A DNA stretch of 64,000 bases, taken from Kordia sp. Lineage in GTDB: Bacteria > Bacteroidota > Bacteroidia > Flavobacteriales > Flavobacteriaceae. Location of the stretch: contig NZ_OZ245041.1 of NCBI RefSeq assembly GCF_965224175.1, positions 1,456,249 to 1,520,248 on the forward strand, written 5' to 3'. Numbering within the stretch: position 1 is the stretch's first letter; the number at the start of each line of letters is the position of its first letter. The translations under genes and the position numbers were made by a program. Under the pieces are notes generated by a model, which had not been told where the DNA came from, did not search any database, and was given only the letters and a program-made list of their open reading frames with translations. Below, one piece after another: positions 8,992 to 64,000 of the stretch.

Positions 8992-9108
8992 TTTATTTCC
9001 AGAAATCAAAAGACGCTTTTCAGAAATTAATTTGAAGCCATTTTCTTATTTGATATTAAGTTTAACCTGTCGACATTAAACATTTATAAACATTAAAATC
9101 ATTTTATT

Positions 9109-9330: not shown

Positions 9331-9361
9331 TTCAATAATTTACTACTTAAAAACAAATATT

Positions 9362-9616: not shown

Positions 9617-9644
9617 TTTAAAAACACTAAAATTTAGTTCAAAA

Positions 9645-9672
9645 AAAAGGGAAGTCAAATGACTTCCCTTTC
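9645..9672. terminator. Bidirectional intrinsic terminator
   Basis: AAAAGGGAAGTCA-aa-TGACTTCCCTTTT between convergent genes. Confidence 0.85.
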
Positions 9673-9699
9673 TTATTGAGTTTATCTTAATTTATAAGC

Positions 9700-42030: not shown

Positions 42031-42477
42031 TCAAAATTTTTCAAACAATTTTTGAGGTGGTTCATATTCAATAAAATCTTTACTCCAAATAACTCTATAT
42101 TTTTGATATGTATTATTTGTGTTCTTTTCAATAAAAAAGAGTTGAGTTGTCGTATTAGCTCCTTTTAAATTCGAATACTTTTCTACAAATTGTTTTAAAC
42201 TAATTGACTTTATTTTCTGAAAATCATTATCATCAATTTTTGAAACATCATTACTGTCTTTATAGTTGATAAAAAATTCTCCACACAATTTAAATCTAAT
42301 TGTATTTTTTACATCCGTTAGTTTCTCAGTTTTACACTTGTAGGTATGGAAAGTATCTATCTTTTTTATTGTGTATTCAATCATTGTGTTATTTTCAAAA
42401 ACAACATGAATTTTTTTCTCACTACTACAGGAAATTAAAAAGTAAAGTATAAAGCTATTTACTATTATTGATTTCAT
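42031..42477 (-). CDS. Lipoprotein translationally coupled to the HExxH protein (candidate immunity protein)
   Basis: TAATG overlap at 42475-42479; lipobox LISC. Confidence 0.8.
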   Translation of the reverse strand: MKSIIVNSFILYFLISCSSEKKIHVVFENNTMIEYTIKKIDTFHTYKCKTEKLTDVKNTIRFKLCGEFFINYKDSNDVSKIDDNDFQKIKSISLKQFVEKYSNLKGANTTTQLFFIEKNTNNTYQKYRVIWSKDFIEYEPPQKLFEKF

Positions 42478-44204
42478 TATTCAGCACATGTTTCGTTAGC
42501 ATTATTTTCAAGCAAGTCATTCAAGACAATTAATATACGATTCTTTTCACTAGTAGGTAATTGTTGAAAAGCAATAATGGTTGGTGTTTGATTTGGGTAA
42601 TTCATTAAACCAAGCCATGCTATATCCTTATAAAGTTGTAGTGGCTCTTCATTTATGGGAACAACAGTACCTGTATCAAATTCTTGCGTAGCTCTAGCAA
42701 ATGTACCTCTGTAATAATCTGCCATGTAATTATGACTCCAATCTTTTGTTGTTCTAAAATATTCATAAATTATATGAAGATCACCATTTTCCAGTGAAGC
42801 AATAGCTTCTTCGGGTGTTACATTGGGTAAATTACCCAAACCAATTTCTTCTAATATCTGCCTTAAAAATTCTGCGTGGATAACTTCATGAATTATTGTA
42901 TTAGCTACGAATAAATTTGGATTGAAATTTACATTTTTAAATGAGTTCGGTTGATTATTATTATTAAGTGTAATAACAATTGTGCCATTATCATCTGGCC
43001 ACTGAGTAATTGCTCTATCTGTAAGTCCTAAATCTCCTAATTTAAATGTTAAATTTGCTTTTGATTTACTGTCAGTGAACCTAGCTAAAGCTTTAGTTAA
43101 TATACTACCGTCTTTCATTTTGTTATAGATGCATTTCGCCTTACCCGTAAAGCTCGAATCTAAAATTATTTTCTCATCAAAATCCACTTCTCCTCCATCA
43201 CGGAGAGCTTCAATAGCCTCATCCAAAAACTTTTTATTTCCTTCACATCCATTCGCTTCAATATATTGCGTAATCGCGATCGCACTTTGTCCGCCAACGA
43301 ATGTTTTGAGCCAATCAATGTCTGAAGACGATAACGGTAGCGGGTTATTTGCGTCCAAAGAACCAATATAACCATTATTCACACAATTAACAACACGTTG
43401 CCAATACGGTATAAAAGGTACAGTTTCTATTGGGTCATCGTCATCTGAGTCATTTCCGCCACCTGTTGTACCACCGCCATTTCCGCTTCCTTGAGTTCCG
43501 CCTCCTGAACATGCCCAACGATCAATAATAATCCATTCGCAAGTTTCAGATGCCGGCATACAATTTACGGTTACCTGACATAAACATCCATCTTGATTCA
43601 TACTGTGCTGTCCGTTACCAGTACAACGATATTGTGTACATTGATATTCTTGTGTTGTTTCTACTAAAACTGGTGTTCCTTCTAAACAAGGTCTAATACC
43701 ACCAGGATATGATTTTTCTAACAATGTGTTTCCTGCAATGCTTTCCATAATTGTATGGTCGCGATCAAGTTCTACACCATTTTCTGTGACAAGCTTGGGA
43801 TATTTTAGTAAGAATTGATATTCTTCACCATCATTGAAATCAAGCAGCATATAATTTATAAGATGTGTTTCTGATTCTGCATGATCAATCACGGAAGTTG
43901 TATATTGTGTATAGGTATTGCGTTCAATGATTTGTATTGTAGAGAGATCGAGAGAAAAATTAGGAGTATCTACCTCATCAGCATTTTTTGAGCTATTTTC
44001 TGCACGAGAAACTGCTGATAGTTTTTTGTAGATCGTGGGATTAATGCTACGTAAATGAGTTCCATTCTCTATTTTAACAACAAAATCTGACTTTTGAGAT
44101 TGTTCGTTTTCAGCGATACGCGTAGCATCATCCTGCTCACAGGAAGTTACACTGAACAACAGTATACATACAATAAAAGATAATCGTTTTAAAAGACGTT
44201 TCAT
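42477..44204 (-). CDS. Large surface lipoprotein with a Cys-rich segment, Gly-rich linker and C-terminal HExxH zinc-metallopeptidase (toxin-like) domain
   Basis: Start moved to MKRLLK (44204). Lipobox VTSC + EQDD; 8-Cys segment; GGGTQGSGNGGGTTGGG; TIIHEVIHAE. Confidence 0.75.
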   Translation of the reverse strand: MKRLLKRLSFIVCILLFSVTSCEQDDATRIAENEQSQKSDFVVKIENGTHLRSINPTIYKKLSAVSRAENSSKNADEVDTPNFSLDLSTIQIIERNTYTQYTTSVIDHAESETHLINYMLLDFNDGEEYQFLLKYPKLVTENGVELDRDHTIMESIAGNTLLEKSYPGGIRPCLEGTPVLVETTQEYQCTQYRCTGNGQHSMNQDGCLCQVTVNCMPASETCEWIIIDRWACSGGGTQGSGNGGGTTGGGNDSDDDDPIETVPFIPYWQRVVNCVNNGYIGSLDANNPLPLSSSDIDWLKTFVGGQSAIAITQYIEANGCEGNKKFLDEAIEALRDGGEVDFDEKIILDSSFTGKAKCIYNKMKDGSILTKALARFTDSKSKANLTFKLGDLGLTDRAITQWPDDNGTIVITLNNNNQPNSFKNVNFNPNLFVANTIIHEVIHAEFLRQILEEIGLGNLPNVTPEEAIASLENGDLHIIYEYFRTTKDWSHNYMADYYRGTFARATQEFDTGTVVPINEEPLQLYKDIAWLGLMNYPNQTPTIIAFQQLPTSEKNRILIVLNDLLENNANETCAE

Positions 44205-44419
44205 TACTAACTTTTTTATTCGAAAAAGCAAAGAAAGTATAGGTTTTTGGGGAAACACAATTGTAACGCTTTTACAAATATACAAATTTTTCTTACATAT
44301 AATTATTTTTTATAAAGTTTTTTCTTACGTTTATTGTTTGTCAGAAATATGTCATAACATAAAAAAGTCTTACTTTTACTTTGTAAGACTTCTTGTTTTC
44401 ATATGTATAATTAAGCTAA

Positions 44420-45823: not shown

Positions 45824-46744
45824 ATGAATTATACATTACATCAATTAAAAGTTTTTGTAGAAATTGTAAAGAAACAAAGTATTACGAAAGCTTCTGAAGC
45901 CTTATTTTTAACACAACCTGCTGTTTCTATTCAACTTAAAAAGTTTCAAGATCAGTTTCCTTTACCGCTTACAGAAGTCGTTGGACGAAAGTTATATGTG
46001 ACTAATTTTGGAAAAGAAATTGCAGTTACTGCACAGAAAATTTTGGATGAAGTATCAACTATTGATCATAAAACAAAAGAATATCAAGGAAAACTCGCCG
46101 GGAAATTAACACTTACATGTGTGTCTACAGGAAAATATGTAATGCCATATTATCTTTCTGGATTTGTGAATCAACATGCAGGAATTGATTTTACAATTGA
46201 TGTAACGAATAAACAAAATGTTGTGAAAGATTTGGAAGAAAACAAAGTTGATTTTGCATTGGTTTCTGTATTGCCAAGTCATTTAAATCTTGAAACGTTA
46301 CCATTGCTTAAAAATAGTTTGTATTTGGTTGGTGGAAAAGAACGTGAAAATAATAGAAAAGGTAAAATTGTCGATATTTTTCAAGAACAACCATTATTGT
46401 ACAGAGAAAAAGGTTCGGCCACTCGAAATGCCATGGAGAATTTTATTGATGGAAAGAATGTTTCTGTTCAAAAGAAAATTGAATTGACTTCGAATGAAGC
46501 TTTGAAACAAGCCGTTATTGCTGGTTTAGGATATTCTATTATGCCATTATTAGGAATTAAAAATGCTGTCGATAAAGGCGATATAAAAGTGATTAAACAC
46601 AAAGGATTGCCTATCCACACACAGTGGAATCTCGTTTGGCTCAAAAATAAATCTTTATCACCTGTAGCAACTGCGTTTATCGAATATTTACAGGCTGAAA
46701 AGCACGTTATTAAACAAAAGTATTTTGATTGGGTTGCAGAATAA
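45824..46744 (+). CDS. LysR family regulator (CbbR/CmpR-like), divergent from sbtA
   Basis: YTLHQLKVF, SITKASE.LFLTQPAVS.Q.K, REKGSATR, SNEA.KQAV.AGLG. Confidence 0.92.
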   Translation: MNYTLHQLKVFVEIVKKQSITKASEALFLTQPAVSIQLKKFQDQFPLPLTEVVGRKLYVTNFGKEIAVTAQKILDEVSTIDHKTKEYQGKLAGKLTLTCVSTGKYVMPYYLSGFVNQHAGIDFTIDVTNKQNVVKDLEENKVDFALVSVLPSHLNLETLPLLKNSLYLVGGKERENNRKGKIVDIFQEQPLLYREKGSATRNAMENFIDGKNVSVQKKIELTSNEALKQAVIAGLGYSIMPLLGIKNAVDKGDIKVIKHKGLPIHTQWNLVWLKNKSLSPVATAFIEYLQAEKHVIKQKYFDWVAE

Positions 46745-46889: not shown

Positions 46890-47783
46890 TCAATGTGTAA
46901 AATTTCCAAAATAGACCATATTGATATCTAGCTCTGTGTTGCCAAGTGTAGAACCATCATGGAAACAATTATCCGTTGGCGCAATGTAGTAATCTCCAGG
47001 TTTTTGTTCCATTCTGATTACTGGATAGTCTGGAAAGTGTTTGAAAAAAGTTTCTGCTACATTGTATACATCTACTTTGCTGATGTCCGTAACTTCTTTG
47101 AGCATGTTATGTACCTGAATCATTGATAAGTTAATGTACAGAAAGTAACGCGTTTGCGCTCCAAGATTGATACAGATTCTATTTCCATGCTTGTATGTTG
47201 TGTGCAAGGTCATGAATTGTGTTCCATCATTGTGCATGCCCATATATTTTTTCTCAGGAATGGTAAAATCTTCTGGTAAGCGTGTAATATCGCAAGCTAC
47301 CATTTCTACGTTAGGCAGATTTGCTGTAATGCAATGCAAATGAAAAGGTTTATTATTTGAGATGGTTTGTAAGAAGTTATTCAACTCAATATTCAAAGCT
47401 AAGGTCAACTCCTTTTCTTCTCCAAAACGTTGCATTACGTGTTCTCTTCCTCTACAAGTACTAAAATTAATTTCTTGTATGAGTTGTTTTGCTCTTTCTG
47501 GCAATGCTCCCAAATAGATATTATTATGATCTTTTAATTCGCCTGCAGCCGTTATAATCCGTTTTTCTGTAGTTTCTAGTGGACGCCAATCGCGTTTAGG
47601 AATGTAAGCTTCATCAATATACAACGGTACAAAAGAAAAGTGTTCAAAATTTACTTGTGAACCTGTATGTTCTGAGTGATGAATAACTCCTGAATTGATT
47701 TGTATAGTGTCATAACCTGTAGGTAATTTACTGTGAATTCCAATTCCTTTTTTTATCGTGGTTTCCGTTGCTATTGCTGTCAT
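46890..47783 (-). CDS. Putative non-heme Fe(II) (2OG-type DSBH) oxygenase, paralogue 4
   Basis: MGMHNDG ... RICINLG ... YIAPTDNCFHDGST (HxD...H triad). Confidence 0.6.
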   Translation of the reverse strand: MTAIATETTIKKGIGIHSKLPTGYDTIQINSGVIHHSEHTGSQVNFEHFSFVPLYIDEAYIPKRDWRPLETTEKRIITAAGELKDHNNIYLGALPERAKQLIQEINFSTCRGREHVMQRFGEEKELTLALNIELNNFLQTISNNKPFHLHCITANLPNVEMVACDITRLPEDFTIPEKKYMGMHNDGTQFMTLHTTYKHGNRICINLGAQTRYFLYINLSMIQVHNMLKEVTDISKVDVYNVAETFFKHFPDYPVIRMEQKPGDYYIAPTDNCFHDGSTLGNTELDINMVYFGNFTH

Positions 47784-47795: not shown

Positions 47796-48677
47796 TTAAT
47801 GTTGAAAACTGCCAAAATATACAATACATACGTCCAAATGTTTTCCTCCTAAAGTAGAGCCATCATGGAAGTAATTATCGGTAGCAGCGATATAATATTG
47901 ATATGGTTTTTGCGCTACTCGAATGACAGGATACTCCGGAAAATGCTTGAAGAAATACGCTGGAATGTTTGATACATTTATGTTTGCTATTTCTGTTTCA
48001 TCTAATTTTTCTGTTAGCATCGTGTACGCTTCTTTTAAAGACAAATTCACAAAAAGTAGATACCGTGTATCTTTTCCTAAATTAATACTGATTCTATTGC
48101 CAAATTCGTGTGCATTGTGAATCGTCATTGATTGTGTAGCGTCATTGTGAATTCCCATAAACTTTTTTTCTGCTTGTTTGAAACCTCTTGGTAACTTCGT
48201 AGTATTAGAAGCCACCAATTCTACATTGGGATAGTTGACACCAATACAATGAAACTTAAATTCTTTATTATTTGCCATTGGCATCAAAAAGTCGTTGAGT
48301 AGCTTTGTAGCTTCTAGAGTAAGTGCTGGATTGGCTTCGAAACGTTCAAAAACCTCATCTCTATCTATACTATGTTCTAATCCAATTTTTTGAAAACATT
48401 CTTTTAACGCAGTCGGAATTTCTCCTAAATACAAAGTATTGTGATCGTTACATGATTCATCTGGAGATAAACAAGTAATTTCTTCTTGAGTTAAGGGTCG
48501 CCAATCGCGTTTATTTACATATGCATAATTCACATATTCTGGAATGAATTCTTCATCTAAATAGCTTACTAAAGCTGCTTTGTGATGCGAATGATGAACT
48601 GTTCCTGAATTAATCATTAGTGCATCTACTCCATCAGGAAGCAGATTTTGAACCATTATATTTCTTTTTATTTTCAT
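47796..48677 (-). CDS. Putative non-heme Fe(II) oxygenase, paralogue 3
   Basis: MGIHNDA ... RISINLG ... YIAATDNYFHDGST. Confidence 0.6.
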   Translation of the reverse strand: MKIKRNIMVQNLLPDGVDALMINSGTVHHSHHKAALVSYLDEEFIPEYVNYAYVNKRDWRPLTQEEITCLSPDESCNDHNTLYLGEIPTALKECFQKIGLEHSIDRDEVFERFEANPALTLEATKLLNDFLMPMANNKEFKFHCIGVNYPNVELVASNTTKLPRGFKQAEKKFMGIHNDATQSMTIHNAHEFGNRISINLGKDTRYLLFVNLSLKEAYTMLTEKLDETEIANINVSNIPAYFFKHFPEYPVIRVAQKPYQYYIAATDNYFHDGSTLGGKHLDVCIVYFGSFQH

Positions 48678-48701: not shown

Positions 48702-49583
48702 TTATTCTTGAAATTTCCCAAAATAGATCATCAATACGTCCAATGCCGTCATTCCTTCTGTAGAACCATCATGAAAACAATGATCTGTTGGTGCAATGTA
48801 GTATTGATAAGGTTTTTGTGGAATTTTAATCACTGGATACTCTGGAAAATGTCTAAAAAACAGTTTCGATATGTTATATAAATCTACATGTAAAACTGAA
48901 ATCCCGATTTTCTTTTTTAACATGTTAAATGCTTGCGTTAAGGAAAGATTTGCATATAGAAAATAACGTGTTTCCTTGCCTAAATTTATAGTAAAACGAT
49001 TTCCCGATTTGTACGTTGCATGTATTGTTGTAGGTTCAGCACCGTCGTTATGAATTCCCATACATTTTTTGTCTTCTTCTCCATAACCTTCAGGAAGCAC
49101 ATTTGTATCTGCTGCTACCATGTCTATATTGGGCAAATTGGCTCCTATATAGTGAAAATGAAATGGTTTTTCGTTTGCAAAACCGTTCAGATATTTTTGC
49201 ATTGTATTACTCAATTTTAGCGTCATATCATGATCGCGTTTCATACATTCGCGCACATCATCTGGTCGTAAGCATTCCTTAAATTTTAAGGCGTCGAAAA
49301 TAGTTTTTAATTCATCTGGAATGTCTCCAACATAGATGGTATTGTAATAATTACGTTGCTCATTCGCGGTTAACGCTTTTATTTCATTTTGAGATAATTT
49401 TCGCCAATCGCGACGTACCATGTATGCATCATCTTCGTATTGTGGTACAAAAGACCAATCGAGATAATTTACTTTACTTTTTTCTTGTTTTGTATGATGA
49501 ATGGTTCCTGAATTTATGAAAACTTCATCAAAAAAATTATCGAGTGTACTGTGTAATCGTATGCCATTTTGTATAATTTCCAT
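48702..49583 (-). CDS. Putative non-heme Fe(II) oxygenase, paralogue 2
   Basis: MGIHNDG ... RFTINLG ... YIAPTDHCFHDGST. Confidence 0.6.
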   Translation of the reverse strand: MEIIQNGIRLHSTLDNFFDEVFINSGTIHHTKQEKSKVNYLDWSFVPQYEDDAYMVRRDWRKLSQNEIKALTANEQRNYYNTIYVGDIPDELKTIFDALKFKECLRPDDVRECMKRDHDMTLKLSNTMQKYLNGFANEKPFHFHYIGANLPNIDMVAADTNVLPEGYGEEDKKCMGIHNDGAEPTTIHATYKSGNRFTINLGKETRYFLYANLSLTQAFNMLKKKIGISVLHVDLYNISKLFFRHFPEYPVIKIPQKPYQYYIAPTDHCFHDGSTEGMTALDVLMIYFGKFQE

Positions 49584-49594: not shown

Positions 49595-50431
49595 TTAAGG
49601 AAGTTGATCAAATATACCTGTGTATACCATTGTGATATCTATTTGTTTTGTACCTGCTGTAGAACCGTCATGAAAAAAATTATCTGTTGGTGCTACATAG
49701 AATTGATAAGGCTTTACCGCAATTTTAGTGACTGGATATGTTGGGTAATATGTATAAAAATGCTGTGCGATATTGTCTGGATTTAAAGGTGTTTTTGTAA
49801 GATCCATTTTCATTTTCAACATATTATATACTTGAATCATCGTAAGATTTGTATACACTAAAGTTCTGATTTCATTACTTAGATTGATAGAGATTCTATT
49901 GCCTGATTTGTGTGCCGTATGAATGGAAAAATGCCTGCTTTGATCAATGTGTAAGCCTAAGTATAAAAATGCGCCTTCTACATAAAAACTAGTCATTGTT
50001 TCTCTGTTAGGAATTGCATATGTGATTTTGTGAAATTTGAAATTGCCTGTAGAAGAGAGTTTGTTTAGAAAAACATGTAATTCTTTGTTTATTTTTTCAA
50101 CATGAGTTTCATTGGCTTGAAATCTTGGTATTACATCGTATGCATCCGTAATGTCTTTGAGCGTTAATAATTGAAAAGCTTCTTTTAGTTTTTTTGGAAT
50201 ATCGTCTACGTACAAACTCCTGCGATAGTCAAAATTTGTAGTTTTCGTACCTACCAAGGTATTCAATTGTTCTTGTGTAGGTATTTGCCAAGTTTGTAAC
50301 GGAATATAGGAGTCTTCAAAATAAGTAGCTCCATTGTATTCTTTTACATGTTGTGCTCCAGTATTTACCAATAGCTGATCAGACACATTTTTTATGCCTG
50401 TAAAAAGCTGTATTCCTTTGCGTAGTTTCAT
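49595..50431 (-). CDS. Putative non-heme Fe(II) oxygenase, paralogue 1 (most diverged)
   Basis: LGLHIDQ ... RISINLS ... YVAPTDNFFHDGST. Confidence 0.6.
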   Translation of the reverse strand: MKLRKGIQLFTGIKNVSDQLLVNTGAQHVKEYNGATYFEDSYIPLQTWQIPTQEQLNTLVGTKTTNFDYRRSLYVDDIPKKLKEAFQLLTLKDITDAYDVIPRFQANETHVEKINKELHVFLNKLSSTGNFKFHKITYAIPNRETMTSFYVEGAFLYLGLHIDQSRHFSIHTAHKSGNRISINLSNEIRTLVYTNLTMIQVYNMLKMKMDLTKTPLNPDNIAQHFYTYYPTYPVTKIAVKPYQFYVAPTDNFFHDGSTAGTKQIDITMVYTGIFDQLP

Positions 50432-50496: not shown

Positions 50497-51759
50497 TTAC
50501 ACTTGTAATTCCTTTTTAAACGATCTTAGTTTTTCTTGAATAAGTGGATCAATTTTTATTTCACTTTCCTCTTCAAAACTATTGATGATTTCCTCATACA
50601 CCAATGGTTCAACTCCAAGTTCTTCAACAGATGTTGCTGGCAATGAGTTTAAAATATCGTTCTGTATAAAGCTTATCAAACGAACCATATCTTTGCAGTA
50701 CATTGTAGGATTGTCAAAGCCATTTGCTTCCGAGTATCGATGTCCTAAAAATCCACCTCCACAAATATCAAAAACCGGACAGTTTAAACATTGTTCAGTC
50801 ACTTCATCATGTGCTCGGTAATACAATTGAAACGTATCGTCTTCAAATAAATCTTCAAGATTGTTGTTGTGTACATTGATGTCATTTCGAGTAATTCCTT
50901 CAAAACATGCTCTTAACGAATCTACTACTTCCACACTTCCATCAGATTCTACGACAGCAACTCCATTGGTACGTCTTCCCATGAGTTGATTACCAATACC
51001 TTCTTGTCCCATGATCATTTTAACCAGCGTTTCAAAAAAGTAAATACTAGGACGGTTATTTCTATCTTCTTTCCATAATTTGTACAAACCAATAAACCAA
51101 TCAGCATATGGCGTATAATTTTTATCGTGTAATTTACTGACATCCAAACCTAAAGGTGCTTGATCATAATGTCCATCTGGTAAGAGTATGTTTAAACTGC
51201 TTACGGCTAATTTTTTCATTTCTGCATACAATTCTTCAATAGGAATGTTAATATTAACAACTAGCAGTAATCCTCTTAAATTGTATTTTTTTCCTAATTC
51301 AATAGCTTTGGCAACCTGCGTATATGAACCTTTTCCATTGTGAAAAACCCTGTATTCATCATGATACTTTTCTGGACCATCAATACTAATTCCAACAGCA
51401 ATATTTAATTTTTGAAGCAATGTATACCACTTCTCATCAAGAGTTACTCCATTTGTTTGCATTGTAAACACATAGGCTAGTGTTGGCGCTGTATTTTTAA
51501 AAATGGCAATACATTTTTCAAAATATTCAGGTTTTGCTAATAATGGTTCTCCTCCATGAAATACGATTTGTACATGCGTGATTTCTGCATTTTCACAATA
51601 GCTCTTTAATCTATCAGCAAAATTTTGCACCGTTTCTAGTGACATAAATTTTGGCTGTTTTAAATAGGTTTGATCGCCCATGTTGTACATATAGCAATAT
51701 GAACAGTTGAGATTACACCTACTGGCAGTTTTCAATACAAAAGAAGTGACTCTATACAT
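50497..51759 (-). CDS. Radical SAM/SPASM peptide maturase, FxsB / cyclophane-forming (triceptide) type
   Basis: VLKTASRCNLNCSYCYMYN (CxxxCxxC), FHGGEPLL, MQTNG, ISIDG; SPASM CLNCPVFDICGGG..HRY....GFDNP..YC.D. Confidence 0.8.
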   Translation of the reverse strand: MYRVTSFVLKTASRCNLNCSYCYMYNMGDQTYLKQPKFMSLETVQNFADRLKSYCENAEITHVQIVFHGGEPLLAKPEYFEKCIAIFKNTAPTLAYVFTMQTNGVTLDEKWYTLLQKLNIAVGISIDGPEKYHDEYRVFHNGKGSYTQVAKAIELGKKYNLRGLLLVVNINIPIEELYAEMKKLAVSSLNILLPDGHYDQAPLGLDVSKLHDKNYTPYADWFIGLYKLWKEDRNNRPSIYFFETLVKMIMGQEGIGNQLMGRRTNGVAVVESDGSVEVVDSLRACFEGITRNDINVHNNNLEDLFEDDTFQLYYRAHDEVTEQCLNCPVFDICGGGFLGHRYSEANGFDNPTMYCKDMVRLISFIQNDILNSLPATSVEELGVEPLVYEEIINSFEEESEIKIDPLIQEKLRSFKKELQV

Positions 51760-51786
51760 AACTATTTTTTTTCTAATTCATAAAAA

Positions 51787-51820
51787 ACTAGATAATCTCT
51801 AGTTGTAGAGATTATCTAGT
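51787..51820 (-). terminator. Perfect 15-bp hairpin with U-tract between the precursor and rSAM genes
   Basis: ACTAGATAATCTCTA-GTTG-TAGAGATTATCTAGT, followed on the minus strand by TTTTTA. Confidence 0.88.
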
Positions 51821-51827
51821 CAACTTT

Positions 51828-52091
51828 CTATCCAGCAGGTGAATCTGATATTGGTCCTACAGGATCTCTAGGATCAGCTGGCGCCATCTGTAAGAAAGTA
51901 TCAATTTTGTCATACGCAGAAGCTCTAGATGCTTTAGAACTAACAGCTACTACAGGACAATTTGCACTTGCTCGACCTCCAAAGATTGCTTTGTAAAGGT
52001 CTAATTGGTCTTCATTTGAGTTGCTTAACGCTTTGTTTACAACTTCTTTTGATTTTAAGTTTGAAGTGATTTTTGAATTTTTCTTCATCAT
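51828..52091 (-). CDS. Putative RiPP precursor peptide (87 aa)
   Basis: MMKKNSKITSNLKSKEVVNKALSNSNEDQLDLYKAIFGG|RASANCPVVAVSSKASRASAYDKIDTFLQMAPADPRDPVGPISDSPAG; sits between the TonB barrel and the rSAM. Start moved from 52151 to the MM at 52091. Confidence 0.75.
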   Translation of the reverse strand: MMKKNSKITSNLKSKEVVNKALSNSNEDQLDLYKAIFGGRASANCPVVAVSSKASRASAYDKIDTFLQMAPADPRDPVGPISDSPAG

Positions 52092-52183
52092 TAAAAAATT
52101 TAAATGGTTAATAAAACTGTCATTAGTATGGACATGACAATCGCCCTTCACTTTATGAGTAAAATGAAAAAACTATTCGTTGC

Positions 52184-54598
52184 TTAGAGACGTCTTTGAA
52201 TATCACTATTACCTGTATCTCTACTACGTTGGTTTTTTACTGTTGATTTACCAAAAGCGTAGCGTACTGCAAAAGCTATGCTTCTGGTGTCGTGATAATT
52301 GGTATCATTGATACGTATATCACCAACTTGAATGTTATATCGGTCTTTGTTGCTTCTAAGTAAATCTCTTCCAGATAAGGAGAGACTAAATCTTCCGATA
52401 TTTTTTCGTAGTGCAATTTCAGTTTCTAGCCTGTTACCGATTTCGGTGTTGACTAATGTAAAGGGGAAAGTGTTTTTAGCGAATACTGTTAAGGAGATTC
52501 CTTTTACTTTTGATATCGTAAAAGTCTGATTCGCTACTATACTAAATACTAACGAATTACTGTCGATAGTTATTGTGTCATCGGCATAACTTCCTGTGGT
52601 TTGTACATGACCAAAAAGAGAAGTTGCATTGAATCGCCACCAAGGTTGAATTTTTGTTGCCATGGTAACACTACCTGAATAGGAATATTTGTTTCCGTAA
52701 TTCGTTTTTCTGTTAATAATGATTCCTTCGTCAGAATTGAAAGGAAGCGCGTAAAACTCATCTAATAGTTGACTCGCAGCTATTTGTGCAACAATACGAA
52801 CTTTACCTGCTACTTTTGTGTAATTTAATTCTTGACGATAGTAACGGGAAGGGTTTAAAAAAGGGTTTCCTTCAAAAAAGGCTCTATCTGTTGTATATTC
52901 TCGAAAAGGGTTTACATCCCAAAAACTAGGACGTGTTATTCTACTCGATACTGAAAATACAAAACTATGTGCATTGTTCGGTTTGTATCGCAGAAAAGCT
53001 GTTGGAAAAAAGTTTGTATAATTTCTATCTACAACTTTGGTTCCTTCTAGTTTTCCTTTAGCGATTGTATTTTCTATACGCGCTCCAAATTGATACGACC
53101 AAGTATCACTTAAAGTATGATTTATGACTGCGTATAATGCGTTTATATTTTCATCATATTCAAAGAAATTACTTCGTGTAGGATCATCAATCCAAATCAT
53201 TTCTACGATAGCTCTGTTGTCAAAATTTAGGTCATTATCTACTTTAGATAGTGAAAATTTCACACCAGTTTCAACAGCTATATTTTCGCTTAGTGGAAAT
53301 TCTAGATCAAGCTTAAAAGAAGTACTTTTTATATCTTGAATTGTTGCATTACGAAACCAATCGCGAATGTATAAGACATCGTTGTTTTCAAGTGTGACAA
53401 CATCCGTTTTACTGATTCCAGTATTATCTGAGGAAAATTCTAAAAAATCAATATCAGCTGTAAGTAACGTACCTTTACCGTCTAATTTTCCTTGATAATT
53501 AAGGTTTAACGAATAGGTTCGATTGACAGCTTCATCTCTATTTTTTGTGAATGTCAGTGAGTCATTTAACGTGTAGGCATCAAAGCTAATTGCATCTCTA
53601 TTTTGATTTTCATCCGCACCTGAAAATTCAAATAACATTCCGACAATATGTTTGTCATTGATTTCATAGTCTACTCCAAAGTTTGCTCCAGAGAAGAATG
53701 TTTTCATAGTATTTTCGCGATCTATGAAGCGTGTTTCGATATCAGTTGGTTCTGAAATTGGATAGAAAATATCTTTTTCATAATTGGTACGTCGTTCTCT
53801 GTTGCTCAGATATGCTGTTGAGAATAGATTCCATTTAGATTTTCTGTAGTTTAGGTAGATACTTCCTGCTTCTGAGAACAATCGTGTTTGACGGGCGCTT
53901 AAACTTGCGGTTCCTTCTAAACCTTCTTCTTTGTTTTTTTTAGTGACAATATTTATGATTCCTGCTCCGCCTTCAGCTTCAAATCGACTCGAAGGTGTTG
54001 TGATGACTTCTACAGCTTCTAGATTATCAGCTGGTAGGCTTTTTAGATAATTCATTAATACTTCACCAGAAAGTCGTTTTTTTCTACCATTTATGTAAAC
54101 TATCACGCCTTGCGTTCCGGCTATTTCAATCGTTCCGTTTTCGTTTGTAGACACGAAAGGCGTTTTGTTTAAGGTTTCCCAGACACTACTTCCTAGTATC
54201 AAGTCGGAATTAGCTACATTGAAACGCAAGCGATCCGTTTTTCGTTCAATGATATTTTTCTCTGCAGTAATGACTACTTTAGAGAGTTCTTTATTTTCTT
54301 TGAAACGAAAGTTAAGTCTTGTATTTTTTGTGATATTAGAAACTATAATAGAATCTGCATATCCTATATGACTAAAATTAAGCGTATAATTTCCTGATTT
54401 TAAGTTTTTTACTTTATAATAACCAAGACTATCTGTAATTAAATTTTTAACGAGTATATTATCTTTTACAACACTGATAAAGACATCGGGAAGTGGCATC
54501 GCATTAGTATCAGTTACGACACCATCAATTGTATATTGACAATGCGCAAGCTTAATGCTAATGATGATAAACATCAATGCTATTTGTACTTTTTTCAT
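52184..54598 (-). CDS. TonB-dependent outer-membrane beta-barrel protein heading the RiPP operon
   Basis: Signal peptide; carboxypeptidase-regulatory-like domain; plug L.KTPFV....G.I.I.G..GV.VYING; SSRFEAEG..GIINI; GNPFL.P; C-terminal RY.FG. Same family as 17884..20322. Confidence 0.85.
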   Translation of the reverse strand: MKKVQIALMFIIISIKLAHCQYTIDGVVTDTNAMPLPDVFISVVKDNILVKNLITDSLGYYKVKNLKSGNYTLNFSHIGYADSIIVSNITKNTRLNFRFKENKELSKVVITAEKNIIERKTDRLRFNVANSDLILGSSVWETLNKTPFVSTNENGTIEIAGTQGVIVYINGRKKRLSGEVLMNYLKSLPADNLEAVEVITTPSSRFEAEGGAGIINIVTKKNKEEGLEGTASLSARQTRLFSEAGSIYLNYRKSKWNLFSTAYLSNRERRTNYEKDIFYPISEPTDIETRFIDRENTMKTFFSGANFGVDYEINDKHIVGMLFEFSGADENQNRDAISFDAYTLNDSLTFTKNRDEAVNRTYSLNLNYQGKLDGKGTLLTADIDFLEFSSDNTGISKTDVVTLENNDVLYIRDWFRNATIQDIKSTSFKLDLEFPLSENIAVETGVKFSLSKVDNDLNFDNRAIVEMIWIDDPTRSNFFEYDENINALYAVINHTLSDTWSYQFGARIENTIAKGKLEGTKVVDRNYTNFFPTAFLRYKPNNAHSFVFSVSSRITRPSFWDVNPFREYTTDRAFFEGNPFLNPSRYYRQELNYTKVAGKVRIVAQIAASQLLDEFYALPFNSDEGIIINRKTNYGNKYSYSGSVTMATKIQPWWRFNATSLFGHVQTTGSYADDTITIDSNSLVFSIVANQTFTISKVKGISLTVFAKNTFPFTLVNTEIGNRLETEIALRKNIGRFSLSLSGRDLLRSNKDRYNIQVGDIRINDTNYHDTRSIAFAVRYAFGKSTVKNQRSRDTGNSDIQRRL

Positions 54599-57869: not shown

Positions 57870-60800
57870 TTAGAAGCGTACACTGCTGACAATATTTGTT
57901 TCTAAACTTAGTTTTTGTTGCTTATGTATAAGTTGATTTGAGTATTCGTCATTTTCAAAGACATGCGTAATGATGTTTCCATGATGACAATCTACATTAA
58001 TGACTTCTAAATTTTCAACGAATTGTTTTACATTATTATCTGCTAAGGTTTGAATATACGCCTGAATTTCATCACTGCCTTCAAAATCAATTCGTGTATC
58101 GTGTTGCAATGCTTTGAATAGAACTACGCGACTTCTTGTCAATATTCCAGAAATCGGTTGTTTGCTAATTTTATGTTCAGCTGCAGCTGCTCTCATTACA
58201 TTGGCTACATAAGTTTCGTCATAACCATCGGCAATCATTTGTGCAGTAGCTATTTTAGTATTTTCAATTTCGTCATACCTATCTAACAATGCTAACAAAT
58301 GTGCATCTCTGATCAATGTATCTAGTAAATACACATTTATATTTCTACATCCTTTTTGTTCTAGAATGTAAGCCATTTCCAGTGCAATTTGTCCTCCTAA
58401 CGACCAAGCACATAGATTGATAGTTTCTGTTAGATTTTTTGTAAGCAACTCATTTACATACTTTTCTGCTAGTAAATTTAGGTTTGAAATAGAATCTTCA
58501 TTCACAATATTATAATTGTCAATTCCGTACGAGTTCATATTGTTTCGGAGCTTATTCGCTAACTCTGTATACACTTCACAACCGCTTTTAGCTGGATGCA
58601 CAAATAAAAGATTTTTTTCGTTAGCTAAATCGACATTCATCTTTTTGATAAGTGTATTTGATGATCGCTTTTTAGGTACATTTAAAAGTAAATTCTCAAT
58701 ACTTTTATGTTTAAACAAATCCGCAATACTCAACTCTTCTCCTTCGGTAGAAAAAGCTTTATTCATTTTAACAATTAGCTTTATGGCTAAAATAGAGTTT
58801 CCTCCTATCTGAAAGAAATCATCTGTAATTCCAACTTTTTCTATGCTTAAAACTTCTTGCCATATAGAACAGAGATTAATTTCTACATCAGTACTTGGAG
58901 CTTTGTACAATTCTTCATTCACAAATTCTGCATCAGGCAATGCTTTACGATCTAACTTACCATTAACTGTCAACGAAAAATGATCTAGTGCAACCAAAAT
59001 ACTAGGAATCATATAATCAGGAAGTTGATCTGACAAATGTGCTTGTATTTTTTCTTTATCAACTTTTCCATCGGAAACATAATAACCCACTAAATATGTA
59101 TGATCATTTTTTTGTTTTGCCAATACACAAGCCTGCTTAACACCTTCTACTGCTCTTAGCGTATTTTCTATTTCGCCTAATTCTATTCGATAACCTCTTA
59201 TTTTTATTTGGAAATCATTTCTACCAATGTATTCTATATTTCCATTAGCTAGCCATCTTACTAAATCGCCTGTTTTGTAGAGTTTTATATAACCATTTGT
59301 TTGATCTTTTTCCGTTGCAAATGGGTTTTCAATAAACCTTTCCGCACTGAGTTCTGGTCGATGTAAATAACCACGAGTTAAATCTACACCACTAATAAAC
59401 AATTCACCTTGAACGCCTACAGGGACTGGTTGATAGTTATCATCTAGAACATAAAATTTAATATTCTGAATTGGTTTTCCGATGTGAACTAAATCAATAT
59501 CTGCTTGAATGTCATCGTAAGCGCTTACATCAATTGCTACTTCTGTAGGACCATAAAGATTGTTTAGTTTTATTGTAGGAAATAGATTTTTAAAATCATT
59601 CACCAATTGCAATGGAAGTGCTTCTCCACTACAAAAAACTTGCTGTACAGCATGTAGCGATTGTGATGATTTACTTTCTAAATGAGCCACAAAACCATGC
59701 AACATACTTGGTACAAAATGTAACTTTGTAACTGATTGATCGTTTAGTACATGATGCAAATACTCAGGATCTTTGTGTCCGTTTACTTTCGCAAAAATCA
59801 ACTTACTTCCAGAGATAAGAGGCAATAATAATTCCCATACAGAAACATCAAAAACATATGGCGTTTTCTGTAGTATTGTATCAGATTCATTAAAGTTATA
59901 TGCTTCTTTTTGCCATAACAATCTATTCACTAAAAGTTGATGTGTCACCATCGCGCCTTTTGGTTTCCCTGTAGTTCCAGAAGTATAGATTACATAGGCT
60001 ACATCTGTAGCTATGTGCTGATTCGTAACATTTGTTGTTGTGTTGTGTTGGTAACAATTTGAATCTAAAGTTATCAAACGAACTGCGTTGATTTGCTGTA
60101 AATTTTCCGCCAAATGAGATTGCGTCAATACAACTTCTGTTTTGGTATCTTCAATGATATAATTGATTCTTTCCGCAGGATATTCAGGATCTATCGGAAC
60201 ATACGCAGCTCCAGATTTCATGATTCCTAATATGCCAATGATCATTTCCAAGCTTCTATCTAAACATAAAGCGACCAAAGTATCTGATGTAATGGTTATT
60301 TCTGATTGTAGATATCTTGCCAATTGATTTGCTTTCGCATTTAATTCAGCATATGTCAGCGTTTCGCCTTCAAATGAAACTGCAATAGCATTTGGTGTTT
60401 GTAAAACCTGCTTTTCAAACAATTCATAAATCGTTTTGTCTTCTGGATATGGTGTTTCTGTCTGGTTCCAATCTACAACGATCTGTTGGTATTCTGCTTC
60501 GGTAATCGTTGACAGCTCTGTGTGTTTTTCATCTAAATTTGAAGGTAACTGATTTAGTAATAATTCAATCTTGCTCAAATTGAAAGTAGCTTGTTTTCGG
60601 TCTAAAATACTTTGATCTGATTTTAAGTTGATCACTAACTTTTCTCCTTGTTCGTATGCTGTAATTCCTATTGGATAATCTAATTTTTCTACGCCATAAC
60701 GAAATTCAGGATGTAGCTTATCGTCACCTTCTTGTTTTGCATCAGACATCGGATAGTTTTCAAATACTAGCAAACTATGAAACAATCGTTTTCCTTCTTT

Positions 60801-63800
60801 TTGCAAGTCCGCAAGATTCGCAAAACTGTGACTGTTAATATCTGTAATTTGCTGATGTACGTACTGAATTTGTTCCAAGATTGTATTGTCATTGGTCCAA
60901 TCAATAATTAATGGCAAAGTATTAATGTACAATCCAACACTTTCTTCAATACCATGAACTGGAATATCTCTTCCTGAAACTGTAGTTCCAACAATAGTTT
61001 GCTTGTCTTGTGTGTATTCCTGAATCAATTTGTGCCAAGCAAATTGAACCAAGGTATTTAGTGTAAGTCCTGTAGTTTTTGTTAGTTTTTTCAATGCATG
61101 ATATTCGCTTCCTGAAATTTCAATGGCTGTATCTAAAGGACTTTCTAGCGATTTCACTGTATCTAAATCCTGTTTGTGCGACAATAATGGCGATAAATCA
61201 TTGGTTTGTGCTATGGTTTTAACCTTCGTTTGCCAATAGTCAGCAACACTTTGTTTTTTATTGGATACATAAAGTTGCGCTTCCAAATAAGAAGTGTCTA
61301 CTTTGACAGCAACTTTTTGATTTTGTTGCAACTGTTCATAATGATTGTGAACCGTATTTAATAAAACTGGTCCGCTCCAACCATCAGAAATACTGTGATG
61401 TTCAGATTTTAATATGGTGTAATGTGTCGCTGATTGTTTGATGATGTACAATCGAAGTAAACACGGAACGCTTAAATCAAAAGCAATTTGCCTATCTTTT
61501 TCTTGTAGTTCAACAAGATACTTATTGCGTGCTTCTTCAGTTAAATGACTTATATCTAACAATTCAGAATTCAAGCTAGCTTTGCGATAAATTACTTGAA
61601 TGATATCTTCTTCCCAATTGAATCCTGTTCTGAGAATTGGGTACTTTTTAATCGCTAATTTCCAAGACTTAATATAATTCTCAACATGTAGCGGTTGTTT
61701 GTAATCAAATAAAATCTGTACGCGATATGCATCGTCTTCTTTTTGACTCAATGCATGATATACAAATCCTTGTTGTAAGCTATTCGCTGGATATATGGCT
61801 TCTATTTGTCTGTCTTTCTGCAAATTGTCTAATAGATTTTGTGAAATGGTAACTGTACCAAAATCACTTGGCGTGTGCTTTGTTTCTTTGCTTTTGATTT
61901 TGTCTAAACAGTGTTTGATGACTGCTGATAAATGCTGCTCAAAGTTGGCTGCGAAGCGTTTTGTTTGTTTTGATCCTAATCTGCTATCTATTCGAAAACG
62001 CAATTTGCCTTCTACAACCATTCCATTAATGTTGATTAATGTTGTATCTTCATTTTCATCATGAATCGCCATGCCTGCATCTTCAGACACAACTTGCCAG
62101 TATTCGTCTTTGCTATCAAATTGACCTAAGTAATTGAAACTTATTCTTGGTAAATTGATCATTTCCTCAGGAAAAATTGCGCCAAATCCAATGCCTTTGT
62201 TTGGAATCTTACGAAGGTTTTCTTTGATCGATTTGATACTTGACGAAATCGTATCTTCTAATTGTAATTCAACAGGATACAACGTTGTAAACCAACCAAC
62301 AGTTGCACTGTGATCAATGGTTTCATTTAATGCTTCTCTTCCATGACCTTCTAAGGTAATGAATTGGTTATTAGAACTGTTCCAATCTTGAAGCGTGAAG
62401 CCTAAAGCAGTTAATAATAAATCATTTACTTCTGTATGATAGGCTTTGTTTGCTTTTCGTAATAGATTTTTTGTTTGCTTTTTGTTGAGTTTGGTTTTTC
62501 CTGTAGAAACTTCTTTTTCTTCAATTTTCAAAGGAACAATGCTTTGTAATAGATTGTTCCAATATGTTCTTTCTGTTGGATGCTTCTCTTCATATTGTGA
62601 CACTTCTTCAACCCATTGACGATAACTACTTGATTTGCTTTCAAGTGTTTTTCCTTCATATAAAGATTTGATATCTTCAATTAAGATTCGCCAAGAAACC
62701 GTATCAATGATTAAATGGTGAAAAGCAAAAAATAAGCGTGCGCTTTTGTCTTCATATCCTTCAAGATATGCCGATGTCCACAACGGAATTTCATGAATAT
62801 CAAAATTACTTTGTAGCGCTGTTAGTTTAGTAGCGATTTCTTTTTCTGATAGATTTTCTACATTTAAAACTGAAATTTCTGGAACTTCAATTTCTGAGAG
62901 ATAACGCTGATTTCTATCTCCAAAAATCAAACGCAATACATCATGTTGCGTCACAATTGCTTCTATTATTTCTTGAAGTTTTTCTGTATTTAATTTTGGA
63001 ACTTTTAATAGAAAACTTTGATTCCAATGATTGAATTTCCCGAATTGACCACGTTGCTTTTTATCAAAAAACCATTTTTGCACAGGAAGCAAATCAAAGG
63101 TTCCTTCTAGCAAACCTTGTTCGGCAGTAATGGCAACTGTTTTTACATCTTCAGCAATGAAAAGTGCTAATTTTGAAATGGTTCGATGATCAAAAATGGC
63201 GCGAACACTACAATTGAGTCCTTGTTTTCTCAGTCTTGAACTTAATTGAATACTTAAGATAGAATCGCCGCCGATACGGAAGAAATCATCAGAAACACCA
63301 ATTTTTTCAAGATTTAAAACTTCTTGCCAAACTTCACATATTTTAATCTCCAAATCAGTGCTTGGCGCTTCATAAGATTCTTCACTGACAAACTCAGCTT
63401 CTGGTAAAGCTTTTCGATCTAATTTATTATTAATTGTTAAAGGAAAGTATTCCAATTCAACCAAAATACTCGGAACCATATAATCAGGAAGCTGAGCAGA
63501 AAGATGTTCTAAAATTTCTTCCTGACCTACCATTTCATCGGAAACATAATAACCAATTAAGTATTTATTACCATTTCGTTCTTTGGCTAATACACAACAT
63601 TGTTTGATGTTTTTAATAGCACTGATTCTATTTTCAATTTCTCCTAATTCTATACGATAACCTCTTATTTTTACTTGAAAATCATTGCGTCCCATGTATT
63701 CCATGTCTCCGTCTGGAAGCAAGCGTACCAAGTCGCCTGTTTTATACAAACGCGTGTACCCTTTTTCTATATCTGATTGACTTGCAAATGGATTTTTAAT

Positions 63801-64000
63801 GAATTTCTTCGCTGTGAGTTCAGGTTTATTTAAATATCCACGCGCCAATCCTGCACCGCCAATATGCAATTCGCCCACAACACCAACTGGCACAGGTTTG
63901 TTGGTAGCATCTAATACATAGCTTGATAAATCATTTATGGCTTTTCCTATGTTTGAAGACGCTTTTTCATCTTCAAATACTTCTTTGTACGTAACATGAA
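57870..64000 (-). CDS. Non-ribosomal peptide synthetase, 5' part outside the window: [A end]-PCP-E-C-A(Ser)-PCP-TE
   Basis: The frame stays open to the window edge (the ORF-track M at 63893 is an internal GTG). PCP GGDSI; E domain HHLIIDTVSW and EGHGRE; C domain HHSISDGWS; A domain YTSGTTGKPKG; PCP GGNSI; TE HPAKSG and AWSLGG. Confidence 0.95.
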   Translation of the reverse strand, partial: HVTYKEVFEDEKASSNIGKAINDLSSYVLDATNKPVPVGVVGELHIGGAGLARGYLNKPELTAKKFIKNPFASQSDIEKGYTRLYKTGDLVRLLPDGDMEYMGRNDFQVKIRGYRIELGEIENRISAIKNIKQCCVLAKERNGNKYLIGYYVSDEMVGQEEILEHLSAQLPDYMVPSILVELEYFPLTINNKLDRKALPEAEFVSEESYEAPSTDLEIKICEVWQEVLNLEKIGVSDDFFRIGGDSILSIQLSSRLRKQGLNCSVRAIFDHRTISKLALFIAEDVKTVAITAEQGLLEGTFDLLPVQKWFFDKKQRGQFGKFNHWNQSFLLKVPKLNTEKLQEIIEAIVTQHDVLRLIFGDRNQRYLSEIEVPEISVLNVENLSEKEIATKLTALQSNFDIHEIPLWTSAYLEGYEDKSARLFFAFHHLIIDTVSWRILIEDIKSLYEGKTLESKSSSYRQWVEEVSQYEEKHPTERTYWNNLLQSIVPLKIEEKEVSTGKTKLNKKQTKNLLRKANKAYHTEVNDLLLTALGFTLQDWNSSNNQFITLEGHGREALNETIDHSATVGWFTTLYPVELQLEDTISSSIKSIKENLRKIPNKGIGFGAIFPEEMINLPRISFNYLGQFDSKDEYWQVVSEDAGMAIHDENEDTTLININGMVVEGKLRFRIDSRLGSKQTKRFAANFEQHLSAVIKHCLDKIKSKETKHTPSDFGTVTISQNLLDNLQKDRQIEAIYPANSLQQGFVYHALSQKEDDAYRVQILFDYKQPLHVENYIKSWKLAIKKYPILRTGFNWEEDIIQVIYRKASLNSELLDISHLTEEARNKYLVELQEKDRQIAFDLSVPCLLRLYIIKQSATHYTILKSEHHSISDGWSGPVLLNTVHNHYEQLQQNQKVAVKVDTSYLEAQLYVSNKKQSVADYWQTKVKTIAQTNDLSPLLSHKQDLDTVKSLESPLDTAIEISGSEYHALKKLTKTTGLTLNTLVQFAWHKLIQEYTQDKQTIVGTTVSGRDIPVHGIEESVGLYINTLPLIIDWTNDNTILEQIQYVHQQITDINSHSFANLADLQKEGKRLFHSLLVFENYPMSDAKQEGDDKLHPEFRYGVEKLDYPIGITAYEQGEKLVINLKSDQSILDRKQATFNLSKIELLLNQLPSNLDEKHTELSTITEAEYQQIVVDWNQTETPYPEDKTIYELFEKQVLQTPNAIAVSFEGETLTYAELNAKANQLARYLQSEITITSDTLVALCLDRSLEMIIGILGIMKSGAAYVPIDPEYPAERINYIIEDTKTEVVLTQSHLAENLQQINAVRLITLDSNCYQHNTTTNVTNQHIATDVAYVIYTSGTTGKPKGAMVTHQLLVNRLLWQKEAYNFNESDTILQKTPYVFDVSVWELLLPLISGSKLIFAKVNGHKDPEYLHHVLNDQSVTKLHFVPSMLHGFVAHLESKSSQSLHAVQQVFCSGEALPLQLVNDFKNLFPTIKLNNLYGPTEVAIDVSAYDDIQADIDLVHIGKPIQNIKFYVLDDNYQPVPVGVQGELFISGVDLTRGYLHRPELSAERFIENPFATEKDQTNGYIKLYKTGDLVRWLANGNIEYIGRNDFQIKIRGYRIELGEIENTLRAVEGVKQACVLAKQKNDHTYLVGYYVSDGKVDKEKIQAHLSDQLPDYMIPSILVALDHFSLTVNGKLDRKALPDAEFVNEELYKAPSTDVEINLCSIWQEVLSIEKVGITDDFFQIGGNSILAIKLIVKMNKAFSTEGEELSIADLFKHKSIENLLLNVPKKRSSNTLIKKMNVDLANEKNLLFVHPAKSGCEVYTELANKLRNNMNSYGIDNYNIVNEDSISNLNLLAEKYVNELLTKNLTETINLCAWSLGGQIALEMAYILEQKGCRNINVYLLDTLIRDAHLLALLDRYDEIENTKIATAQMIADGYDETYVANVMRAAAAEHKISKQPISGILTRSRVVLFKALQHDTRIDFEGSDEIQAYIQTLADNNVKQFVENLEVINVDCHHGNIITHVFENDEYSNQLIHKQQKLSLETNIVSSVRF

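Follow-up and report, generated by a model that had tools for sequence, protein, structure and literature searches.

The minviopeptin (mic) cluster of Mucilaginibacter inviolabilis encodes the precursor MicA, the radical S-adenosylmethionine (SAM) enzyme MicB, the oxygenase MicC, and the ADP-ribosyltransferase MicD (PMC12912966; PDB 9vkm). MicB makes an FTK ring, and MicC cleaves the N-Calpha bond of a glycine to yield a C-terminal amide, a reaction that requires prior ADP-ribosylation; the same authors pointed to clusters that contain several homologues of MicC with no known role, which they did not characterize (PMC12912966). ChlB is described as a radical SAM enzyme fused to a 2-oxoglutarate-HExxH enzyme, with YDR as its native ring motif (PMC11499958, PMC12636437), and the Asp is beta-hydroxylated solely on the pre-formed ring (PMC12186529, PMC12636437). 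In the Yhh system, YhhB joins Tyr-C3 to Arg-Cbeta (PMC11002830), and the 2-oxoglutarate enzyme YhhC forms erythro-beta-hydroxy-Asp on the modified YhhA (PMC11002830, PMC12186529). In the PosC/PflC systems, a single 2-oxoglutarate-HExxH oxygenase beta-hydroxylates the core and oxidatively removes the C-terminal follower at a small residue, Ala, leaving an amide (PMC12636437). The present analysis concerns a seven-gene cluster built around a precursor gene (51828-52091, minus strand) in a 64,000-nucleotide stretch of Kordia sp. DNA (contig NZ_OZ245041.1, positions 1,456,249 to 1,520,248), referred to as the window.

All seven genes lie on the minus strand and encode an outer-membrane barrel, the precursor, a radical SAM enzyme, and four oxygenase paralogs. 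Those at the center of the argument are the following.

51828-52091, minus strand: precursor of a ribosomally made, post-translationally modified peptide (RiPP)
50497-51759, minus strand: radical SAM/SPASM peptide maturase of 420 residues, relative of three-residue cyclophane synthases (NCBIfam and PDB profile matches)
49595-50431, minus strand: predicted MicC-family Fe(II)/2-oxoglutarate oxygenase, paralog 1, 278 residues, the most divergent of the four
48702-49583, minus strand: predicted MicC-family oxygenase, paralog 2, 293 residues (AlphaFold2 model, MicC profile)
47796-48677, minus strand: predicted MicC-family oxygenase, paralog 3, 293 residues (metal triad, tree grouping)
46890-47783, minus strand: predicted MicC-family oxygenase, paralog 4, 297 residues (metal triad, tree grouping)

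The system is an uncharacterized variant of a known RiPP class. With a probability of roughly 0.6, the cluster makes an uncharacterized triceptide-type RiPP, in which the radical SAM enzyme would close a ring and the oxygenases would then act on the core, the C-terminal tail of the precursor not being required; the chemistry of this product is deduced from sequence.

None of the four paralogs matches any Pfam or NCBIfam model, hence none matches the prolyl-hydroxylase families, and they belong to a Bacteroidota family annotated as "hypothetical" only. Their assignment as oxygenases derives solely from a profile search against PDB sequences, in which a profile built from 55 sequences returned one match, MicC (9vkm, E 4.8e-35). 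Residues H178, D180, and H271 align with the MicC triad H160/D162/H253, R206 aligns with the 2-oxoglutarate-binding R188, and the triad and both arginines (R206 and R196) are retained in every paralog at every locus. Taken singly, each paralog shares 25-29% identity with MicC (E 1e-19 to 1e-27). Pairs among paralogs 2-4 show 45-49% identity, and pairs of paralog 1 with one of those three show 32-35%. The AlphaFold2 model of paralog 2 (predicted local distance difference test, pLDDT, 94.5; predicted template modeling score, pTM, 0.92) gave weak Foldseek matches against the PDB (best E 2e-3), which did not recover 9vkm; KdoO (6a2e) came top, JMJD5 and FIH were also among the top hits, and all the matches examined were Fe/2-oxoglutarate oxygenases, a resemblance at the level of the superfamily. 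KdoO 6a2e is itself among the structural homologues reported by the MicC authors (PMC12912966). With sequence homology, the metal triad, and a predicted double-stranded beta-helix fold all present, the four proteins are identified by their sequences as MicC-family Fe(II)/2-oxoglutarate oxygenases, each with an intact metal triad, and this bears out an earlier note on this DNA that had taken the four neighbours of the precursor for oxygenases. In a neighbour-joining tree, the paralogs fall into four positional orthologous groups, and the group of paralog 1 is found in every related cluster.

The NCBIfam models that score best with the radical SAM enzyme all describe cyclophane synthases, namely YhhB (NF041707; 339.1 bits against a curated cut-off of 445), FxsB (TIGR04269; 313.8 bits against a curated cut-off of 370), and XyeB (180 bits against a cut-off of 450). 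Since the YhhB and FxsB cut-offs are both missed, the enzyme is not an equivalog of either. Its best solved relative is the radical SAM domain of ChlB (PDB 9gm3, E 3.3e-56), which matches residues 3-373 end to end, and a CX3CX2C motif lies at residues 15-22. The enzyme is hence a radical SAM/SPASM maturase homologous to characterized cyclophane-forming enzymes. In contrast with ChlB, in which a hydroxylase domain of the HExxH fold is fused to the radical SAM part, the Kordia cluster encodes its oxygenases as four separate MicC-family proteins with a double-stranded beta-helix. When genomes were scanned with the radical SAM protein, 51 loci were fetched. The nearest is that of Kordia algicida OT-1 (83%), which assigns the window to a different Kordia species, and no YhhA-like precursor with YDR/HNR motifs was found among the 51.

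The precursor gene translates into an 87-residue peptide, MMKKNSKITSNLKSKEVVNKALSNSNEDQLDLYKAIFGGRASANCPVVAVSSKASRASAYDKIDTFLQMAPADPRDPVGPISDSPAG. Because its homologues begin with MKK, the second ATG (52088, M2) is probably the true start, giving 86 residues; a 107-residue open reading frame (ORF) starting at GTG was also considered and is probably unreal, as it traverses a conserved non-coding element. On the plus strand, no ORF of at least 50 residues overlaps 51828-52091, and Pfam and NCBIfam scans of the precursor returned no match. A word-indexed search identified 33 homologues, with identities of 46-86%, from Kordia, Aquimarina, Chitinophaga, and metagenomes, and a full hidden Markov model scan of 1.84 billion representative proteins returned just 21 matches, so the family is a small and specific one. 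Five Kordia genomes share this gene order, as do Tenacibaculum, Chitinophaga ginsengisoli, three contigs from metagenome-assembled genomes (MAGs) or metagenomes, and, apart from a missing barrel, Aquimarina. By its conservation, 51828-52091 is identified as a genuine conserved RiPP precursor gene. The precursor can be divided as follows.

51975-52091, minus strand: leader peptide, residues 1-39, ending in IFGG (conservation in 33 homologues)
51888-51974, minus strand: conserved core, residues 40-68, RASANCPVVAVSSKASRASAYDKIDTFLQ (alignment)
51942-51959, minus strand: C45-P-V-V-A-V motif, holding the sole Cys (conservation)
51906-51914, minus strand: Y60-D61-K62, foremost candidate for a three-residue cyclophane, which would link the Tyr ring with Lys C-beta (conservation and YDR precedent)
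51888-51896, minus strand: F66-L67-Q68, second candidate cyclophane site (conservation and FTK precedent)
51831-51887, minus strand: clade-specific Pro/Ser/Asp-rich tail, residues 69-87, with prolines in (P-x-x)n spacing, probably a follower that can be dispensed with

A scripted residue check places the double glycine at G38-G39, leaves Y60 and F66 as the only aromatic residues after it and C45 as the only Cys, and finds prolines at 71, 74, 77, 80, and 85, as well as P46, which the earlier note had not listed. All 33 homologues share Q29, L32, Y33, A35, I36, F37, G38, and G39 of the leader segment ...QLDLYKAIFGG, so that a GG closes a conserved leader, as had been proposed. The same plan extends to remote members, which share the leader ...LDLYK(A/S)IFGG, a single Cys, AY(D/N/S)(K/R), and F-L-(K/R/Q) near the C-terminus. 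In some members, the GG is replaced by GK (a Tenacibaculum precursor, L011, 7667-7879) or by AG or NN (P0154, P0156, P0163), the remaining leader being kept, so cleavage at GG cannot hold for the whole family. Two long proteins matched by the leader profile, P0157 (774 residues) and P0166 (571 residues), were judged spurious and are probably translated repetitive DNA; they consist of tandem repeats with "...INEQLIQIYDGIFGF...", which resemble EQLDLYKAIFGG, and each has 5-7 leader-profile matches.

The core was compared over 36 distinct sequences from Kordia, Aquimarina, Tenacibaculum, Chitinophaga, and MAGs. Residues C45, V47, V48, A49, V50, R56, S58, Y60, D61, and L67 are invariant, and P46, A57, D64, and F66 (replaced by W once) are nearly so. 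Residue 62 is always K or R, and five homologues in the 33-sequence alignment literally read AYDR, while residue 68 varies (Q, K, R, or L). The core thus contains conserved aromatic-X-X motifs, Y60-D61-K/R62 and F/W66-L67-X68, and as ChlB and YhhB, the best radical SAM matches, make Tyr-Asp-Arg rings, Y60-D61-K62 is the likeliest ring site, with D61 as a candidate for beta-hydroxylation by analogy. The spacing between YDK and F-L varies from 2 to 5 residues, which favors separate small rings and disfavors one Y-to-F bridge. The two aromatic motifs and the single Cys that the earlier note had picked out therefore stand as conserved features; its comparison with a YhhA-type AYDR start fits the published Tyr-Asp-Arg rings and the five AYDR homologues. 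Candidate roles for C45-P-V-V-A-V are a recognition strand and a cross-link partner. A divergent precursor ending in ...CDIVVAAKTNNGRVGAAGAYYNTFLLATV, seen in L012 (7569-7784) and P0164, lacks the D-K-x-D segment.

Compared with mic, this is likewise a Bacteroidota triceptide cluster in which the radical SAM cyclophane synthase precedes MicC-family oxygenases that keep the His-Asp-His triad and the 2-oxoglutarate-binding Arg, the precursor MicA also carries aromatic-X-K motifs (YSK, FTK), and a transporter with a protease domain is found both in mic and in relatives of the Kordia cluster. Unlike mic, Kordia has four tandem paralogs instead of one MicC; K266 of MicC is not conserved in them, and an extra arginine, R196, is invariant across the paralog family. 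The precursor families are unrelated in sequence, that of Kordia having an invariant Cys motif. Regarding the Yhh system, the YhhB model is the best NCBIfam match of the radical SAM enzyme and the YDK of the Kordia core corresponds to YDR in the five homologues mentioned above, whereas the Kordia core contains no His motifs. In Chryseobacterium (L032, L033, L042; ~7700-9972), precursors end in ...GGEWVKIKTKFSKGG-TLDPSTGTGLEQEN, and the genes after them encode a radical SAM enzyme and just one MicC-like protein, of 260 residues; the GG past their last aromatic-X-K motif resembles the MicC site HAS-GG-FTK, which makes them candidates for follower removal in the manner of MicC.

The invariant Cys45 raises the question of whether it takes part in the chemistry. 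All 15 loci with a Cys-bearing core (12 of this family together with L015, L016, and L039) have a MicC-like gene nearby, against only about a quarter of the Cys-less loci in the wider radical SAM set, and the MicC-like proteins of the Cys-bearing loci are those nearest to paralogs 1-4 in the tree. One paralog might accordingly use Cys45 for an oxidative Cys-Tyr or other Cys cross-link, the product being bicyclic and the other paralogs acting as hydroxylases, and a 2-oxoglutarate dioxygenase joining Cys and Tyr in a RiPP is cited in PMC12636437. However, the association between Cys and MicC-like genes is uncorrected for shared ancestry, and the substrate of MicC itself has no Cys. This alternative is quite unlikely, and the co-occurrence, taken with the reported Cys-Tyr dioxygenase, may serve as a lead.

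Alternatively, the radical SAM enzyme itself could form a thioether at Cys45, for instance from Cys to Asp, as in sactipeptides or ranthipeptides, either replacing the cyclophane or besides it, the Cys then being class-defining. The single Cys persists in remote relatives with other aromatic motifs, two invariant or near-invariant Asp residues are available, and the PapB ranthipeptide model does match the enzyme with 116 bits; yet the cyclophane models score far higher, among solved structures ChlB is the closest relative, many related radical SAM loci have cores that lack Cys, and the Cys goes together with the MicC-like genes, not with the radical SAM enzyme. We regard a thioether as improbable. 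A similarly low probability attaches to the view that F66-L67-X68 alone is cyclized, Y60-D61-K62 being a recognition or hydroxylation site devoid of a ring. F-L does lie near the C-terminus, like some triceptide motifs, and is kept even in the divergent L012 and P0164 precursors, in which YDK becomes YYN. Against this, residue 68 is the variable one, Y60 and D61 are under stricter conservation, and K/R62 fits the basic third residue preferred by the closest characterized enzymes (PMC11499958).

The tail is where the present reading departs from the earlier note, which had suggested the four periodic prolines (or the Asp residues between them) as targets of the four oxygenases. A tail of 11-23 residues rich in Pro, Ser, Asp, and Ala is found in 19 of the 36 distinct cores, and the 17 others stop 2-5 residues past F-L with no proline at all. 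Among the tailed cores, P71 is kept in 18/19, P74 in 15/19, P77 in 11/19, and P80 in 5/19; a run of four prolines at period 3 exists in just five of them. The positions noted at 71, 74, 77, and 80, with P85, are correct and the register is beyond chance: when the 19-residue tail is shuffled, a period-3 run of four appears in 1.2% of cases (p = 0.012; 4.2% for any period from 2 to 5), and the tailed homologues contain 34 P-x-x-P pairs against 9.7 expected (0/20,000 shuffles), no PP pair, and a depleted number of PxP pairs, a statistic drawn from related sequences and thus not an independent-sample probability. This i+3 register is nevertheless confined to one clade, of the Kordia type. Between the window and K. 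algicida, the tail is ~58% identical as against ~94% for residues 2-68 (hand count on the alignment), which indicates that the tail evolves much faster than the remaining precursor.

The tail-less Aquimarina and Tenacibaculum clusters keep one member of each of the four oxygenase groups, and the tail-less Chitinophaga cluster has four paralogs too, from which it follows that the oxygenases are older than the tail and independent of it. No tail-specific gene was found beside the tailed precursors. A 696-residue ORF past paralog 4 in two Kordia loci, considered as a prolyl peptidase, is a thioredoxin of the DsbH type, and a prolyl oligopeptidase at 6416-8476 (minus strand), considered as a partner of the tail, lies 40 kb off and is unlinked. 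The notion that the tail prolines are the oxygenase substrates, at roughly one site per enzyme, is thus highly improbable and largely refuted by the comparison: the non-random register, the standing of the prolines as the best-conserved tail residues, and the precedent of RiPP proline beta-hydroxylation by a 2-oxoglutarate enzyme of another family (PMC13060819) speak for it, whereas the tail-less cores with persisting oxygenases, the scarcity of four in-register prolines, and the placement of the paralogs in the MicC family, with no Pfam match to prolyl 4-hydroxylases or other prolyl hydroxylases, speak against a collagen-like or polyproline substrate. Put to the test of conservation in homologous clusters that the earlier note had itself set out, Y60 and F66 hold while the proline register fails outside its clade; its overall interpretation survives for the leader, the aromatic motifs, the Cys, and the oxygenase neighbours, and is abandoned for the link between prolines and oxygenases.

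Returning to a triceptide whose core is modified by the oxygenases, the pathway might run as follows. Precursor messenger RNA (mRNA) would be in excess over enzyme mRNA, owing to the strong hairpin behind the precursor stop codon. Guided by the leader, the radical SAM enzyme would bond the ring of Tyr60 to the Lys62 beta-carbon and might also link Phe66 with Gln68. Next, the four oxygenases would modify this conserved core of 29 residues; the favored guess is beta-hydroxylation of Asp61 within the ring, which is the prime candidate because of the analogy with YhhC and ChlB. Further candidate targets are Asp64, the Cys45-Pro-Val-Val-Ala-Val segment, and an oxidative cleavage just past F-L-x, which would shed the tail and leave a C-terminal amide. 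Such follower removal would be reasonable for one paralog because of the known chemistry of MicC; moreover, residue 69, right after F-L-x, is small in every precursor and mostly Ala, and PosC cleavage at Ala provides a precedent, although PosC and PflC have an unrelated fold and come from unrelated organisms, so that the comparison is an analogy only. Finally, a C39 transporter-protease, whose gene is present in the Chitinophagia versions but not in this window, would cut off the leader at GG. On this account, the P-x-x-P tail is an extension restricted to one clade and not needed by the four oxygenases. We infer by analogy that the Kordia system operates in the same way as the triceptide pathways of ChlB, Yhh, and mic.

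Several points weigh against this proposal. MicC, the sole characterized relative of the paralogs, is only ~25-29% identical to them, and the features tied to its reaction differ in Kordia: unlike mic, the cluster contains no ADP-ribosyltransferase gene, and there is no conserved Gly after the core, just 12 of the 36 cores ending in Gly, which does not fit cleavage of the MicC type. To our knowledge, beta-hydroxylation has been demonstrated for no MicC-family enzyme. The shortfalls of the radical SAM enzyme against the YhhB and FxsB cut-offs mean that its specificity could differ. The prolines, which are the best-kept residues of the tail in the Kordia-type clade, indicate some constraint on it for which the proposal does not account. 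Lastly, the L012 cluster, with two MicC-like paralogs only and a C39 transporter, has a precursor reading AYYNTFL that lacks D61, K62, and D64, which fits core-directed oxygenases but is a single case.

A further-reaching version, possible but unlikely, holds that the four paralogs are ancient and that each carries out a different oxidative step on the one 29-residue core, giving a densely oxidized and possibly bicyclic triceptide subclass. Candidate steps would be the ring-dependent beta-hydroxylation of Asp61/Asp64, a Cys45-dependent cross-link, and a backbone cleavage past F-L-x that sheds the P-x-x-P follower and leaves an amide.

The remaining features of the cluster are two non-coding elements and the barrel gene.

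52118-52172, minus strand: conserved non-coding element 5' of the precursor, TTTTTCATTTTACT ... GAAGGGC-N3-TGYCAT-GTCCTTACTG-ATGRCA (12-locus alignment)
51786-51821, minus strand: 16-bp hairpin followed by a U-run, resembling a terminator or attenuator (z = -5.2)
52184-54598, minus strand: outer-membrane beta-barrel protein of 804 residues, resembling TonB-dependent receptors, first gene of the cluster (OMP_b-brl_3, E 9e-79)

The upstream element, whose hairpin or palindrome proper covers 52118-52139 between the barrel gene and the precursor, is conserved in an alignment of 12 loci from five genera and is shared by Kordia, Tenacibaculum, Aquimarina, Chitinophaga, and MAGs, with a near-invariant loop and one stem pair changed from U-A to C-G in 5 sequences. 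It is probably regulatory. An Rfam search of the intergenic regions returned only chance-level matches, none of them for this element, and its fold energy is unexceptional (z = -1.6), so it could equally be a protein-binding palindrome, and it is not called a riboswitch here because its RNA fold is thermodynamically ordinary. Gene callers at times render the element as "MKGNCHVLTD..." joined to the precursor. The hairpin at 51786-51821 separates the stop codon of the precursor from the radical SAM gene. In all other related loci that were folded, the stop codon is likewise followed by a hairpin, of 13-19 bp and other sequence (L001, L003-L007, L009-L013), usually with a U-run, so that position and strength are conserved and sequence is not. 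A hairpin after the precursor stop codon is the usual arrangement by which a RiPP precursor is kept in excess over its enzymes. The public sequencing runs containing this DNA are assembled contigs of flat depth, hence uninformative on expression.

The barrel protein comprises CarboxypepD_reg and OMP_b-brl_3 domains with a weak Plug match in Pfam. Of 11 distinct related loci, 10 have its orthologue directly 5' of the precursor, with 47-82% identity, as against 26% to the other barrel of the same type in the window, so that the barrel evolves together with the cluster. More widely, about 30 of the 51 Bacteroidota loci have, next to the radical SAM gene, a barrel of ~800 residues, of the OMP_b-brl_3 type and resembling TonB-dependent receptors, in many cases along with a C39 transporter; such a barrel looks like a general feature of these peptide clusters. 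No ATP-binding cassette (ABC) transporter with a C39 peptidase was found in the window or beside the clusters of other Kordia, Aquimarina, or Tenacibaculum; four related clusters, from Chitinophaga and three MAG or metagenome loci (L001, L004, L012, L013), do encode one. A LysR-family regulator adjoins paralog 4 both in the window (45824-46744, plus strand) and in K. algicida (L005, 13101-14021), and not in other loci, and might control the cluster locally. Two other ORFs of the window are unlinked to the cluster, one of 2007 residues (57870-63893, minus strand) and one of 602 residues (42477-44285, minus strand) that lacks a Pfam match and contains an HExxH motif (IHEVIH) as well as a stretch rich in Gly and Asp.

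Both triceptides and MicC-family oxygenases were discovered recently, and a single MicC enzyme has a known reaction. One precursor served by four conserved, triad-intact MicC paralogs, now sorted into orthologous groups, constitutes a compact natural experiment in the diversification of this family. The comparison yields a short list of residues for mutation (Y60, D61, K62, D64, F66, and C45), and the proline tail can, judging from the tail-less homologues, probably be deleted. Kordia is an algicidal genus. The co-evolving barrel, found beside over half of the fetched Bacteroidota cyclophane-synthase loci, points to an unstudied step of peptide transport. If each of the four paralogs did catalyze a different step, MicC-family chemistry would extend beyond cleavage at Gly, beta-hydroxy-Asp ligands would permit a role in metal binding, and the barrel would handle the product, for export or re-uptake.

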